Below are positions 9,887 through 64,000 of a stretch of 64,000 nucleotides of DNA, piece after piece. The notes beneath the pieces are model-generated. The model did no database searches and was not told the origin of the DNA. It saw only the letters and a list, made by a program, of their open reading frames with translations. Numbering within the stretch: position 1 is the first letter of the stretch; each line of letters opens with the position of its first letter. Both the position numbers and the translations under genes were made by a program. The stretch is from Acidobacteriota bacterium (lineage in GTDB: Bacteria > Acidobacteriota > Terriglobia > Terriglobales > Acidobacteriaceae): positions 65,902 to 129,901 of the forward strand of contig JAKAFB010000001.1 of assembly GCA_021818105.1 (NCBI GenBank), in the 5' to 3' direction.

Positions 9887-9963
9887 TGCGGGGTGGAGCA
9901 GCCCGGTAGCTCGTTGGGCTCATAACCCAAAGGTCGCAGGTTCAAATCCTGCCCCCGCAACCA
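9887..9963 (+). tRNA. tRNA-Met(CAT), initiator type; ICE integration target
   Basis: 77-nt cloverleaf; anticodon arm GGG-CT-CAT-AA-CCC (three G-C pairs), GGTTCAAATCC T-arm, encoded CCA. Confidence 0.97.
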
Positions 9964-11593
9964 CACGAATTTGCGTAGGGATGGCTTCTGAGCCATCCCT
10001 TTCGTTTCCAAGCAGATGCCAGCTTCCCTCCGCGACGTAGTGGGACTTGCCGTTCCCAGTCTGCTGCGGGATCATGCGGATCTCGGAAACGTGGTTGAGC
10101 AGTTCCTTTCGGGCAGACCCCGGATCGCCGGCCAACAGCGCACGAAGGTTCCCCAGCCTCTCCGTAATGAAGTTACGGATGTCCGAAAGATGGGCTTCGA
10201 CCGAATCGTCACCCTGAGCCAGCAGCTGGTCGGTGATTTCGCGTAACTGCTGTTCGCGCTCGTGGATCGCCTCGACCAGAAATGCAGACGGCCCTGTTTC
10301 CGCCGCCGTCGCCGCCAGCCGCCGCAACTCCCCTTCGAGCTTCTGTTTGCGTTCGCGCATCTGCGCCAGTTGGTTCGAGAGATTCGCAAATGCGTTCCTG
10401 ACGTGGTTCCCAAACTCGTCCAGAACGTAGCCAATAGCGTCGGGCTGCAAAACCTTGTTCTGAAGCTCATCGAGCAACTGTTCCTCGATCCAGTCCTTAC
10501 GCACGGTGACGGAGTTCGGACAGGTGCCACGATTGAAGTGCTGTGAGCAGCCATACTTCGGATAGTGGCCGTAGGAGGTGTATCCAGTAATGATGATGAG
10601 ATTGGCTCCGCACAGGCCGCACTTCAGAAGCCCGCTCAGGAGGTAAGGGCTGGTGCTCGAACGAGGAATCAGGACGCCGCCGCCTTCACGCACACCATAG
10701 GTGCGCCGGACGTGCTCCTGCCGTTCGCGCACGCGCTGCCATAGCTCATCGTTGATGATCTGCAACTCCGGGTGCACGACTGTGCGCCACTCGCTCTCCG
10801 GTCTCGCGCGCCGCACGCGCTTGTTGGTTCCCGGCACCTTCACGAATCGAGAGCTGTTCCAGATCACTTTCCCGTTATAGAGATCGCGGCGAAGCATCGC
10901 GCGGATGCAGGTCGGGCACCACGTCGCATACCGCTTGCCCGCACGCGGCCTCGGCGGCGGAACGTGCTCGCTATTCAGTGTCTTTGCAATCGTTTTGAGT
11001 GACTGGCCCTCTGCGGACATCTCAAAGATGCGCTGAACGACCGCCGCCTCGTTCTCGTTGATGACCAATTGCTTGCCCGTCGTGCCAGGCACAGGAACCG
11101 AGTCGTAGCCGAAACAGCGACCACCGGTGTGCTGGCCGCGCAGCATCAGCCCTTCAAGTCCACGATGGGTCTTCTTGGCAAGCTCTTTCACATACAGGCT
11201 GTCCACCATGCCGTGAACTGTGACCAGCACATGCGCCTGCTCGTTCTCGGAATCGATGCCCTGACTGACAGCGATGAGGCGGATGCCGGCGAAGTTCAGC
11301 TTCTCAAAAATGCTCAACGCATCCTTGGTGTTTCGCGCCAACCGGCTGCTGTCGTCGAGCAGGATGATGTCGAAGGGACGCGAGGGAGAGAGAGCGGCAT
11401 CCAGCAGTCGTCCCAGGCCAGGACGGTCCGCGCCGACACCGCTCAATGCTTCATCGACATAGACATGTTCTTCAAGAAACACGAACCCGCGAGAACGCGC
11501 ATACTCGCGGCAGATACGAAGCTGATCGTCAATCGAGAGCGGACTCTGAAGATCGCTGGAATAGCGGGCGTAAGCGGCGCAACGCAGAATCAT
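9920..11593 (-). CDS. Large serine recombinase (resolvase + recombinase + zinc-ribbon domains)
   Basis: AAYARYSS catalytic Ser, DRPGL, SRLARN, LLSGLLKCGLCG...YGC zinc ribbon, coiled coil; ends in antisense tRNA (VAGAGFEPATFGL). Confidence 0.93.
   Translation of the reverse strand: MILRCAAYARYSSDLQSPLSIDDQLRICREYARSRGFVFLEEHVYVDEALSGVGADRPGLGRLLDAALSPSRPFDIILLDDSSRLARNTKDALSIFEKLNFAGIRLIAVSQGIDSENEQAHVLVTVHGMVDSLYVKELAKKTHRGLEGLMLRGQHTGGRCFGYDSVPVPGTTGKQLVINENEAAVVQRIFEMSAEGQSLKTIAKTLNSEHVPPPRPRAGKRYATWCPTCIRAMLRRDLYNGKVIWNSSRFVKVPGTNKRVRRARPESEWRTVVHPELQIINDELWQRVRERQEHVRRTYGVREGGGVLIPRSSTSPYLLSGLLKCGLCGANLIIITGYTSYGHYPKYGCSQHFNRGTCPNSVTVRKDWIEEQLLDELQNKVLQPDAIGYVLDEFGNHVRNAFANLSNQLAQMRERKQKLEGELRRLAATAAETGPSAFLVEAIHEREQQLREITDQLLAQGDDSVEAHLSDIRNFITERLGNLRALLAGDPGSARKELLNHVSEIRMIPQQTGNGKSHYVAEGSWHLLGNERDGSEAIPTQIRVVAGAGFEPATFGL
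9977..10007 (+). terminator. Intrinsic terminator downstream of the tRNA, inside the antisense integrase ORF
   Basis: Perfect 9-bp stem AGGGATGGC/GCCATCCCT, 6-nt loop, followed by TTCGTTT. Confidence 0.7.
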
Positions 11594-11823
11594 GACCGAA
11601 TACCATCCTTGTCGGACGTTACCTCCGAAGGCCCTGTCGTCGCAAGTCGATTCTGCTTCTTGATTTCGGCCAGATATTCCCGCACCAGCGCAGGGATGAT
11701 TACGTTGTCCAGCCAGGATTTGAGGGCGGGGTCGAGCCGCTTTCCAACACTCGAAGACCGTGCGGGGCCAGGCCGCTTCTCCAGCGTAACCTCATTCGCG
11801 CTTTTAACATCCCTGGCTCCCAC
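11590..11823 (-). CDS. Small hypothetical protein coupled to the integrase (possible directionality factor)
   Basis: GTG at 11823 after GAGG; ATGA overlap with integrase start; helix LDPALKSWLDNVIIPALVREYL. Confidence 0.55.
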   Translation of the reverse strand: MGARDVKSANEVTLEKRPGPARSSSVGKRLDPALKSWLDNVIIPALVREYLAEIKKQNRLATTGPSEVTSDKDGIRS

Positions 11824-11892
11824 GCAAGACCTCAAGGCGCGGTTGCTGCCCGCCCGTGTGGGGACAATAAGAAGATTTCTCACGCGGAGGTT

Positions 11893-11933
11893 ATGCTTTT
11901 TCGGGGGAGGGGTATGCAGATCCTGTATAGCCC
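11893..11933 (-). promoter_or_regulatory. ICE box copy 1 (upstream of integrase operon)
   Basis: Minus strand ATCTGCATACCCCTCCCCCGAAAAAGCAT (11921-11893); 26/29 identical to 13241-13269. Confidence 0.65.
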
Positions 11934-62075: not shown

Positions 62076-62321
62076 ATCGGGCCGTTGGCTGCGGAGAATG
62101 GCGAGCCGGTTTTGAAGGTGTAATGGCGCCTGATTTGAGGCAGATATCAGATCACTCTTTGCACTGGCCGCCATTGCCGGGCCAGCGCAGGGAAGCCATG
62201 TGCAAGGCAGTTATCTGATTGATTATGAAAAGACTATCTTGAGGCGCTCAACGATTTCCTGAGTACAAGAAACGCGATAAGCATATTATAGAAAAATATT
62301 CACGATATTCAGCAAATTTTC

Positions 62322-62350
62322 TTGACAAGTGCGCTTTAATATATTATGGT
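62322..62350 (+). promoter_or_regulatory. Sigma-70 promoter TTGACA-N17-TATGGT upstream of the TonB receptor
   Basis: Consensus -35 at 62322-62327 and TAnnnT at 62345-62350 in an AT-rich intergenic region. Confidence 0.6.
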
Positions 62351-62625
62351 TCTTATTCTTATGGGAGAGGTTGGCTTGGCGCGCTGGCGTTAGTTCAGAA
62401 CTTCGAGATCGCTAGATATGTAGCAGCCTTTTCTCGCAGGCCAGCCAATCGAGGAATTGAATTCTTGCCAATTTGCCTCGCCCATTTGCCTGAAGAGTGT
62501 GTGGCGGCTGGGGCCTGGCGGCATACGGCGCTGGCCCAAACCGGGAATCGATCAAAACCCGGGACACGTAGTTGAGAAAACAGAGAGTCAAGAAAACAAA
62601 CCAGGGATATTCCGCAAGGAGGCAC

Positions 62626-64000
62626 ATGAAAGGACATCGGACATTCATAGGGTTTTGCTTTACACTTTTCCTCTTGCTCTCCACGTCGGCGGGCATTGCT
62701 CAGACCATTACCGGCGCTGTGCGTGGGACGGTGACCGATTCGAGTGGCGCCGTCGTCGTGAACGCAAAGGTTACGGCGACGAATGTGGGTACTGGGGTGG
62801 CCACGAGTGTTACGACCAATAAAGATGGCTCGTACAACATAGAGTTTCTGCCGATTGGGGAATACAAAGTCACGGCCACGTCCGCGGGGTTCGCGGAGTC
62901 GTCGATAAGGCCGTTCAAATTGCAGATCGATCAAGTTGCCAAGATCGACATACAGCTCCAGGTAGGCAATCGTACGGAATCGATCAGCATATCGGCAGCG
63001 ACGGCGCCGATTCTGAATGCGGAGAATGCGACGCTGGGCATCAGTCTTAGTTCCAACACGCTCCAAAACATGCCCATGAATGGACAGAACGTTAACTTTG
63101 CGTCGATGTTCGTGCCTGGAACCGTGAACCCGACTGTGGGATCGATGGGCGATCTGCAGGGTTCTGAGCGCGATACGCGTATTGGTTCGAGCGGCCAGGG
63201 CGCACAGGCGGTGCCGTCGTTTAACGGCAATCGCCAGCAATCGAACAACTACGTGCTGGATGGAATCGAAATCAACGAGACGCTGAATAACTTGATTGGC
63301 TACTATCCATCTCCCTATTCGATCCAGGAGATGCGCGTGATTACCGGCAACGCAGACGCGGAGTACGGCAACGTGGATGGTGGAGAAGTGGTTCTGGTGA
63401 CCAAGAGCGGAACAAACCAATTCCACGGGAACGCCTGGGAATACTTTGAGAACCAGAATCTGACCGCTAACACATGGTTCAACAACCTGAAGGGTGTGGC
63501 AAAGACGCGATTCACCCAAAACCAGTATGGCGCAGCGGTGGGCGGGCCGATCCTGAAGAACAAGCTCTTCTTTTTCGGAGACTATTCCGGAATGTACTAC
63601 ACAGTGCCCACGAGCCAGGGTGTCGCCAGCGTGCCGGACGCGAGAATGCGGACAGGAGATTTTTCCGAGGTTCTGGCAACCGAGGGAATTCAGTTCTACA
63701 ACAACTCAAATGGAACCGGCAGCGCCACGCCGTATGTGAACAACCAGATCCCGATCGTGAATCCGGTGGCGAAGTACCTGTTCTCAAACACCAAGGCGTT
63801 GCCAATGCCCAATAACACTGCACATGTTCTACCTGGAACAGTTACATCCGGGAACTATATCGGCTATACCAGTTCCCACAATGCCAACAATCAGGGGGAT
63901 GCACGGATCGATTACACGATTGACAACAAGAATTCGCTGGTTGGCAAATATACGTATGGCGATGCATACGACGCCACGACACAAAACGTTCTACCGACCA
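62626..64000 (+). CDS. Oar-type TonB-dependent receptor with carboxypeptidase-regulatory-like N-domain (runs off the window)
   Basis: AGGAGG RBS; my translation gives signal peptide, GTVTDSSGAVV and NNYVLDG; absent from the ORF track because no stop lies in the window. Confidence 0.92.
   Translation, partial: MKGHRTFIGFCFTLFLLLSTSAGIAQTITGAVRGTVTDSSGAVVVNAKVTATNVGTGVATSVTTNKDGSYNIEFLPIGEYKVTATSAGFAESSIRPFKLQIDQVAKIDIQLQVGNRTESISISAATAPILNAENATLGISLSSNTLQNMPMNGQNVNFASMFVPGTVNPTVGSMGDLQGSERDTRIGSSGQGAQAVPSFNGNRQQSNNYVLDGIEINETLNNLIGYYPSPYSIQEMRVITGNADAEYGNVDGGEVVLVTKSGTNQFHGNAWEYFENQNLTANTWFNNLKGVAKTRFTQNQYGAAVGGPILKNKLFFFGDYSGMYYTVPTSQGVASVPDARMRTGDFSEVLATEGIQFYNNSNGTGSATPYVNNQIPIVNPVAKYLFSNTKALPMPNNTAHVLPGTVTSGNYIGYTSSHNANNQGDARIDYTIDNKNSLVGKYTYGDAYDATTQNVLPT

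Follow-up and report, generated by a model that had tools for sequence, protein, structure and literature searches.

Introduction

Serine-recombinase integrative and conjugative elements (ICEs) and integrative and mobilisable elements (IMEs) of Firmicutes insert in protein-coding genes, in contrast to the element described here, which occupies a tRNA gene in a 64,000-nucleotide stretch of Acidobacteriaceae DNA (G000:C27:65902-129901, referred to below as the window). This element is most probably (at roughly 85%) a 58.0-kb ICE of a soil acidobacterium of that family, integrated by a large serine integrase in the initiator tRNA-Met gene. It resembles Tn5397, with its recombinase TndX, and the streptococcal serine-recombinase elements (PMC5357655) in having a single large serine recombinase at one end and a short core common to attP and attB. 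The host is, however, a diderm acidobacterium, the type IV secretion system (T4SS) is of the VirB/MPF-T type and not of the FA or FATA type, and the cargo is catabolic instead of conferring antibiotic resistance. In the streptococcal IMEs a serine integrase, a MobC-type relaxase and a VirD4 coupling protein co-occur (PMC5357655), and the candidates proposed below would give the same trio.

The ICEs that tyrosine integrases insert in tRNA genes (ICEclc, ICEMlSym, SXT-like elements and PAPI-type islands) are alike in the insertion at the tRNA 3' end, the reconstitution of the tRNA, the position of the integrase beside it and the presence of a T4SS backbone with a large set of catabolic cargo genes adjoining it. 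They differ in recombinase class, and therefore the element described here has no long direct repeat but 12-13 nt of shared sequence, a palindromic attP and a central dinucleotide. In a survey of ICEs, nine had a serine recombinase alone, compared with about 70% that had a single tyrosine recombinase, and tRNAs flanked 30% of ICEs (Cury et al. 2017; PMC5587801). As an element type the present ICE is ordinary; the unusual feature is the pairing of a serine integrase with a tRNA target. Its integrase has the Resolvase/Recombinase/zinc-ribbon architecture of the large serine integrases of phages (phiC31, Bxb1 and TP901-1 type), and its attP is like theirs too: some 50 bp long, imperfectly dyad-symmetric, and given its direction by a central dinucleotide that is not palindromic. 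The carrier here is conjugative, unlike a phage, attB lies in a tRNA gene and the integrase open reading frame (ORF) spans attP.

No account of these acidobacterial elements was found in the literature searched. The Acidobacteriaceae are an abundant soil group whose mobile elements have barely been described, and the element is a well-delimited member of a so far undescribed ICE family of this group. About 35 kb of carbohydrate catabolism genes are thereby placed, with defined ends, inside a conjugative element. Both attP and attB are defined for a family of serine integrases that target the initiator tRNA gene, a well-conserved gene among the Acidobacteriaceae; a unidirectional integrase with a known site might in principle be used for integration in acidobacteria, whose genetic manipulation is difficult.

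Target gene, integrase and left end

ARAGORN found a single tRNA gene in the window, an initiator-type tRNA-Met(CAT) at 9887-9963 on the plus strand, which is the target of the element. Its anticodon stem has the GGG/CCC pairs of initiator tRNAs, and we take its sequence to be close to that of E. coli tRNA-fMet. An integrase of 557 aa is encoded at 9920-11593 on the minus strand, adjoining and overlapping the tRNA gene, so that the serine integrase at tRNA-fMet recognised in a preliminary description of this DNA was confirmed by both the protein domains and ARAGORN. The Pfam domain Resolvase (PF00239, E 5e-25) is followed, C-terminal to the catalytic domain, by Recombinase (PF07508) and Zn_ribbon_recom (PF13408), and the N-terminal catalytic-serine motif YARYSSDLQ is at residues 8-16. 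Homologues with 72-95% identity were found in Acidobacteriaceae only (records of Edaphobacter, Granulicella, Terracidiphilus, Paracidobacterium, Alloacidobacterium and Silvibacterium). The end of the integrase ORF overlaps the 3' part of the tRNA-fMet gene, or of a displaced half of it, in all nine genomes checked.

The core and P' arm of attL were placed at 9952-9985 (plus strand) by alignment of the att sites and read CC CCCGCAACCA CACGAATTTGCG.... The P' arm is an inverted repeat of the P arm at the right end, and the same arm, CACGAA(T/C)TTGC, follows the tRNA end in the genomes G167, G114, G087, G342 and G356. The symmetry of attP (see below) indicates where within the 12-13 nt of shared sequence the crossover probably occurs, namely at the CC at 9952-9953, which opens a run of CCCCC and is 11-12 nt from the 3' end of the tRNA. 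At its 3' end, over 9920-9995 of the window, the integrase ORF reads across attL, through the tRNA terminator hairpin and into the tRNA. Since the ORF spans attP, its last residues would differ between the integrated and the excised state; the excised form is predicted to have 568 aa instead of 557, with the last ~20 residues different.

Right end and attachment sites

The same contig extends 14 kb beyond the end of the window; positions past 64000 are given here as window-equivalent numbers, from which L003 positions are obtained by subtracting 64000. As had been reported earlier, no second tRNA 3' end is present in the window: the 25-mer GGTTCAAATCCTGCCCCCGCAACCA was single at up to 3 mismatches, with 0 matches expected in shuffles. 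The expectation that a copy of the tRNA 3' end would mark the right end proved wrong. The real attR shares only 12-13 nt with the tRNA (the 13-nt form is GCCCCCGCAACCA), as a short core in common is all that a serine integrase needs; serine-integrase islands cannot be delimited in annotation by a repeated tRNA end. A looser search of the genome found CAGGCCCCCGCAACCA at 67964-67979 (L003 3964-3979; G000:C27:133865-133880), 3.97 kb past the window and 58,016 bp from attL. In the 3.6-Mb genome the attR motif TGCAGGCCCCCGCAACCA has a single occurrence, and its reversed form has none.

The elements of G087, G342 and G114 have near-identical attR motifs on the same strand as the tRNA, and so does that of G167, where the motif runs across the start of its contig. 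The left (P) arm of attR is conserved as AGCAA(A/G)TTCG-N8-TTGC(A/G)GG, the reverse complement of the CACGAA(T/C)TTGC at attL. In G167, whose integrase is 93% identical, the P arm is identical to that of the window over 35 nt. Joining the arms gave a palindromic attP around the central CC (...GCAAATTCG-N8-CAGG-CC-CCCGCAACCA-CA-CGAATTTGC...), and the attP reconstructed in the same way for G114 has 21-nt perfect inverted repeats around CC. Dyad symmetry was found at 18 of 30 positions in the window attP, compared with 5-7 of 30 in attB; an inverted-repeat attP with an asymmetric attB is the anatomy expected of a serine-integrase attP.

The sequence to the right of attR (AACAAATCAACAGCTTAC... / AACAAATCAACAGCTTACGATTTG...) continues into a hairpin and a terminator. 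In the element-free relatives of the same genus G009, G013, G007 and G001, a closely similar sequence directly follows the intact tRNA-fMet, so the right arm of attR is the native downstream DNA of the tRNA. A metagenome scan with the predicted attB junction returned nine contigs with the same arrangement of tRNA-fMet and downstream sequence; all were from unrelated organisms, the match was limited to the tRNA and the first downstream bases, and no empty site of this element was among them. The core motif of attR was present in 36 of 401 genomes of the family, compared with 2 matches for the reversed control, and at 18 of 30 fetched loci with the motif in other genomes of the family TTCG was also present at the spacing of the conserved left arm.

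In the mechanism that we propose, the integrase would have recombined a palindromic attP with the tRNA gene at the central CC, in the 3' acceptor-stem strand. The final 10-12 nt of the tRNA would come from the element, which carries a copy of them, so that the gene stays intact at attL, and the displaced native end, with its own downstream hairpin and terminator, would now be the sequence at attR. The predicted junctions are ...TTGCAGG-CC-CCCGCAACCACACGAATTTGC... for attP and tRNA...CCTG-CC-CCCGCAACCAAACAAATCAAC... for attB. The DNA between attL and attR would excise as a single circle, which might then be transferred by conjugation. This circle would hold a 23-kb backbone (integrase, two DNA methyltransferases, VirB-type T4SS, SSB, two winged-helix nuclease-like proteins, VirD4 and VirB11) and about 34.6 kb of cargo, with enzymes predicted to serve tagatose and amino-sugar catabolism, two regulators, and inner- and outer-membrane transporters.

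The four related elements, in other genera of the Acidobacteriaceae, have the same attR structure and each a different cargo. The distance from attL to attR is 42,461 bp in G087, 43,624 bp in G342, 49,518 bp in G114 and 63,353 bp in G167. G167, G114 and G087 share the gene order of the backbone as far as the ORFs at 31.5-33.3 kb of the window; beyond it, each element has DNA of its own up to attR.

Conjugation backbone and catabolic cargo

The backbone genes are all long intact ORFs, and the integrase, attL and attR are intact. Seven T4SS components (VirB4, VirB9, VirB10, VirB6, VirB8, VirD4 and VirB11) are encoded between 14.0 and 31.5 kb, all on the plus strand. The mating-pair-formation operon (13340-21439, plus strand; Pfam and synteny with G167, G114 and G087) begins with small VirB2/VirB3-like ORFs that had a weak TrbD/VirB3 match, followed by VirB4 (14019-16523), VirB9 (16520-17275), VirB10 (17272-18531), VirB6 (19541-20365) and VirB8 (20325-21047), each above the Pfam cut-off. 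Two operon ORFs, at 18668-19537 and 21053-21439, were left without a function assignment. The VirD4-type coupling protein is encoded at 28578-30623 (TraG-D_C, TrwB_AAD_bind and T4SS-DNA_transf domains), and the VirB11 ATPase, also above the Pfam cut-off, within 30299-31525.

Pfam matches on the plus strand further identified an N6/N4 DNA methyltransferase (11973-13067), a C5 cytosine methyltransferase (22167-23771) and an SSB-domain (single-stranded DNA-binding) protein (23768-24856). A 139-aa ORF on the minus strand (11590-12009) had no family match in Pfam, NCBIfam or PHROGs. It is kept beside the integrase, at 51-75% identity, in G167, G114, G356, G342 and G165, even where the backbone differs, and is a candidate directionality factor or regulator.

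The last conserved backbone ORFs, at 31528-33310, were delimited by synteny with the related elements and have no function assigned. DNA similarity to the closest related element, that of G167, stops at about 33165. The cargo follows, from 33311 (it begins at about 33.3-33.4 kb) to 67963 (L003 1-3963), and measures about 34.6 kb. Sugar catabolism had previously been described as starting directly after virB11, which is nearly the case: the catabolic genes do run from about 33.4 kb, with the two conserved ORFs in between. As attR is 58.0 kb from attL, the catabolic genes lie inside the element, in agreement with the earlier proposal of more than 32 kb of such cargo.

The cargo encodes a GDSL esterase, two Amidohydro_2 proteins, two GFO/IDH/MocA oxidoreductases, a NagB-like deaminase, LacI and DeoR regulators, AgaZ/GatZ, ApbE, an APC permease and two MFS transporters. 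It also encodes a DUF5107-TPR protein, a TAT-signal protein, a sugar-phosphate isomerase/epimerase-like TIM barrel, an epimerase, a DHDPS-like aldolase, a SIS deaminase/isomerase, a PfkB kinase, a TonB-dependent-type outer-membrane barrel and a protein of the phospholipase C/acid phosphatase family. A cluster for the tagatose/N-acetylgalactosamine (aga/gat) pathway would have AgaZ/GatZ, an AgaS-type isomerase-deaminase, a tagatose-6-P kinase, the catalytic subunit of the aldolase and a DeoR regulator. In a comparison with this pathway, AgaZ/GatZ scored above the curated NCBIfam cut-off (614 versus 568.8 bits), the SIS, NagB-like and PfkB proteins matched only below their family cut-offs, and a DeoR regulator was present. 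The catalytic aldolase subunit, KbaY/GatY, was not found among the ORFs scanned.

The Pfam search of the ORFs scanned found neither SusD nor any glycoside hydrolase family, and the gene after the TonB-dependent-type barrel encodes a phosphoesterase. Among these ORFs the cargo therefore differs from a polysaccharide utilisation locus of the Bacteroidota type in lacking the SusC/SusD pair and the glycoside hydrolases. The suggestion of a mobile glycan-utilisation locus stands in so far as catabolic genes lie inside the element; their content is monosaccharide and amino-sugar catabolism, and glycan degradation was not demonstrated. No syntenic counterpart of the cargo between 33.4 and 53.4 kb was found in 50 genomes of the same genus, only scattered single-gene matches of at most 76% identity.

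Candidate relaxase and origin of transfer

Two tandem genes on the plus strand, directly upstream of a small ORF and then VirD4, encode the winged-helix proteins P0001 (25918-26964) and P0002 (26968-28008), which are candidate MOB_C-like relaxase or relaxosome proteins. MOB_C relaxases combine an N-terminal winged helix with a restriction-endonuclease-like (PD-(D/E)XK) domain at the C-terminus. The structure model of P0001 (residues 95-348) had a pLDDT (predicted local distance difference test score) of 93, and its N-terminal domain is a winged helix (Z up to 10.8; root-mean-square deviation 3.9 over 82 residues). Columns with H, D, PD, E and K, which would belong to the C-terminal domain, are invariant among the P0001 homologues. 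The conservation of the two proteins is strong, with P0001 homologues of 81-97% identity and 628 and 1373 database relatives. The P0002 model was weaker (pLDDT 64), and its top matches, over residues 94-320, were mostly PD-(D/E)XK nucleases with Z of 5-7.4, in the range of chance. No similarity between P0001 and P0002 was detectable, and Foldseek gave no match at E <= 0.001 for either model.

In CONJscan the MobC relaxase superfamily is represented by PF13814 (PMC5357655). No window protein matched PF13814 (Replic_Relax), and a weak match (E 0.002) was obtained in 2 of 52 distant P0001 homologues. A feature score of 0.89 to a Replic_Relax cluster in the Atlas is taken as a lead only, and a phmmer search against PDB sequences gave no relaxase match. 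A MOB_C-like relaxase role for P0001/P0002 is plausible but unproven. In the gap upstream of the VirD4 operon, the inverted-repeat search found a perfect 20-bp inverted repeat at 28060-28137, which we infer to be a candidate origin of transfer (oriT).

A tRNA relic and a polyketide synthase islet beyond attR

The 25-mer of the tRNA end, which had been proposed as a probe for the downstream sequence, has a second match in the genome, with 2 mismatches, at 73732-73756 on the same strand and contig. The downstream match was thus real, but it belongs to a relic of the tRNA and not to the end of the ICE. The relic, at 73711-73756, is not a tRNA gene; it is 46 nt long and a decayed copy of the part of the tRNA that runs from the anticodon loop to the 3' end. 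Its left arm is tRNA-like (B-type) and not a P arm, and the site is therefore a pseudo-attB, not an attR. A 111-nt direct repeat (86% identity) links 67967-68077 with 73744-73853 (L003 3967-4077 and 9744-9853). It consists of the last 12 nt of the tRNA, the hairpin and the terminator; to the left, its second copy runs on into the decayed half of the tRNA.

Between the repeats is a 5.7-kb islet with genes for YceI, an FAD oxidoreductase, two ORFs with no assignment, a methyltransferase and a type III polyketide synthase (PKS). This islet is separate from the ICE, carries no integrase and lies between the attR of the ICE and the pseudo-attB. The 63-kb ICE of G167, which belongs to a different genus, contains a homologous PKS module (80-90% aa identity); it is inverted there, and no att relics flank it. 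Most PKS copies in the genus of the window are 62-69% identical, and copies of 85-89% identity occur in three genomes. From the closeness to G167 and the mostly low identity within the genus it follows that this version of the module moved horizontally.

Similar 46-nt halves were found in other genomes. In G114 (L091-L095) the half is 86.6 kb from the tRNA and bounds another element, which encloses a second, divergent T4SS, and in G342 (L102-L104) and G356 (L099-L101) a tRNA half, with no whole tRNA, precedes a serine integrase. As such halves bound different elements, no fewer than two kinds of element use this tRNA as a hot spot. One of them is a second family of integrating elements, whose core here is longer and whose insertions produce tandem arrays. 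An extended scenario is unlikely, in which the tRNA-fMet locus of Acidobacteriaceae is an accretion hot spot where serine-integrase ICEs gain cargo by taking in neighbouring islets, a MOB_C-like pair works in a diderm VirB system and the integrase C-terminus changes on integration.

Alternative explanations

Several observations weigh against an intact ICE that carries the catabolic genes. Around this tRNA, rearrangement in the species-level relatives has gone too far for a before-and-after comparison. The GC content of the element (0.545-0.60, compared with 0.598 for the genome) is only mildly atypical, and tetranucleotide and GC composition did not clearly set the element apart from the genome. 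The best DNA matches of the cargo genes in the same genus (70-76%) are about as diverged as those of core genes, so the cargo may be of local origin or may have arrived through a later rearrangement within the element. The attP arms of the window are less symmetric (18/30) than those of G114 (22/30). Finally, no match to HUH or any other catalogued relaxase family was found in Pfam, NCBIfam or PHROGs.

The mobile element might consist of the 23-kb backbone only (9.95-33.3 kb), with a decayed right end near 33 kb and the catabolic genes being resident chromosome or an unrelated island. The end of conserved synteny with the related elements at about 33.2 kb, the change in sign of GC skew at that junction and the near-genomic composition of the cargo would fit such an arrangement. 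It would however require a right end where none was detected: there is no att-like sequence near 31-34 kb, in particular no degenerate attR near 31.5-33 kb (16- to 25-mers of the tRNA end match only at 9.9, 67.97 and 73.7 kb), and neither the junction nor the cargo is flanked by repeats. The site at 67.97 kb, in contrast, is a full attR: its P arm matches, and its other arm is the native downstream DNA of the tRNA. In 4 of 4 related elements, too, 18-36 kb of unrelated DNA separates the backbone from attR. Furthermore, in 13 relatives of the same genus neither the catabolic locus nor the ICE is present in the 18 kb adjoining the tRNA, which bears out the view that the locus is not a resident neighbour of this tRNA. 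The backbone as the whole element is therefore very hard to sustain. An end farther out, giving an element of 63.8 kb from the tRNA to the degenerate half at 73711-73756 with the type III PKS module included, is also highly improbable. The 25-mer match can be extended to a 46-nt tRNA half on the same strand and contig, and the ICE of G167 does contain a homologous PKS module, but the B-type left arm marks a pseudo-attB, the real attR with its share of the 111-nt repeat is 5.7 kb upstream, and the 46-nt halves in G114, G342 and G356 bound other, different elements.

A more serious, though still doubtful, alternative accepts the boundaries and regards the element as a fixed island that is no longer transmissible, its cargo having been mobile only historically. 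The lack of a recognisable relaxase and the reduced symmetry of the attP arms are consistent with this, and evidence of activity cannot be obtained from sequence. The intact state of the integrase, both att sites and the backbone ORFs argues against it, as does the strong conservation of the winged-helix proteins upstream of VirD4, a pattern expected of genes under selection. A 58.0-kb ICE between attL and attR at 67.97 kb remains the explanation that we favour.

Other observations at the insertion site

The symporter gene of the left flank is conserved in 20 of 24 genomes of the same genus. The DNA beyond the tRNA differs in nearly every one of these genomes and never matches the right flank of the present genome. 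The hydrolase of the right flank was considered as a synteny anchor and dropped, as it has only 63-67% relatives, which are elsewhere in the same-genus genomes. G036, G038 and G040, three genomes flagged as unpublished, were counted only in these flank tallies (symporter and hydrolase), and no claim depends on them. In five same-genus drafts, G004, G003, G021, G022 and G019 (L006, L007, L009, L020 and L021), the contig ends a few hundred bases past the symporter/tRNA-fMet locus, as would be expected if repeated or mobile DNA sits there.

Within the window, GC skew turns from negative (left flank and backbone) to positive (cargo), with the cumulative minimum at about 32000-34000. A 49-nt direct repeat (88% identity) is shared by the C5 methyltransferase gene (23068-23116) and the tail of the SSB gene (24777-24825). 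A 40-nt inverted repeat (83% complementary; 11893-11932 and 13230-13269) flanks the region from which the integrase-side genes and the T4SS operon diverge, and may be a shared operator.

In G488, G432 and G614 (L113, L120 and L130), a second CCCCGCAACCA, with a (T)CCGAATT or TCTGAATT junction that is attL-like, was found about 33 nt past the attR motif. This suggests that two serine-integrase elements are present in tandem in these genomes.

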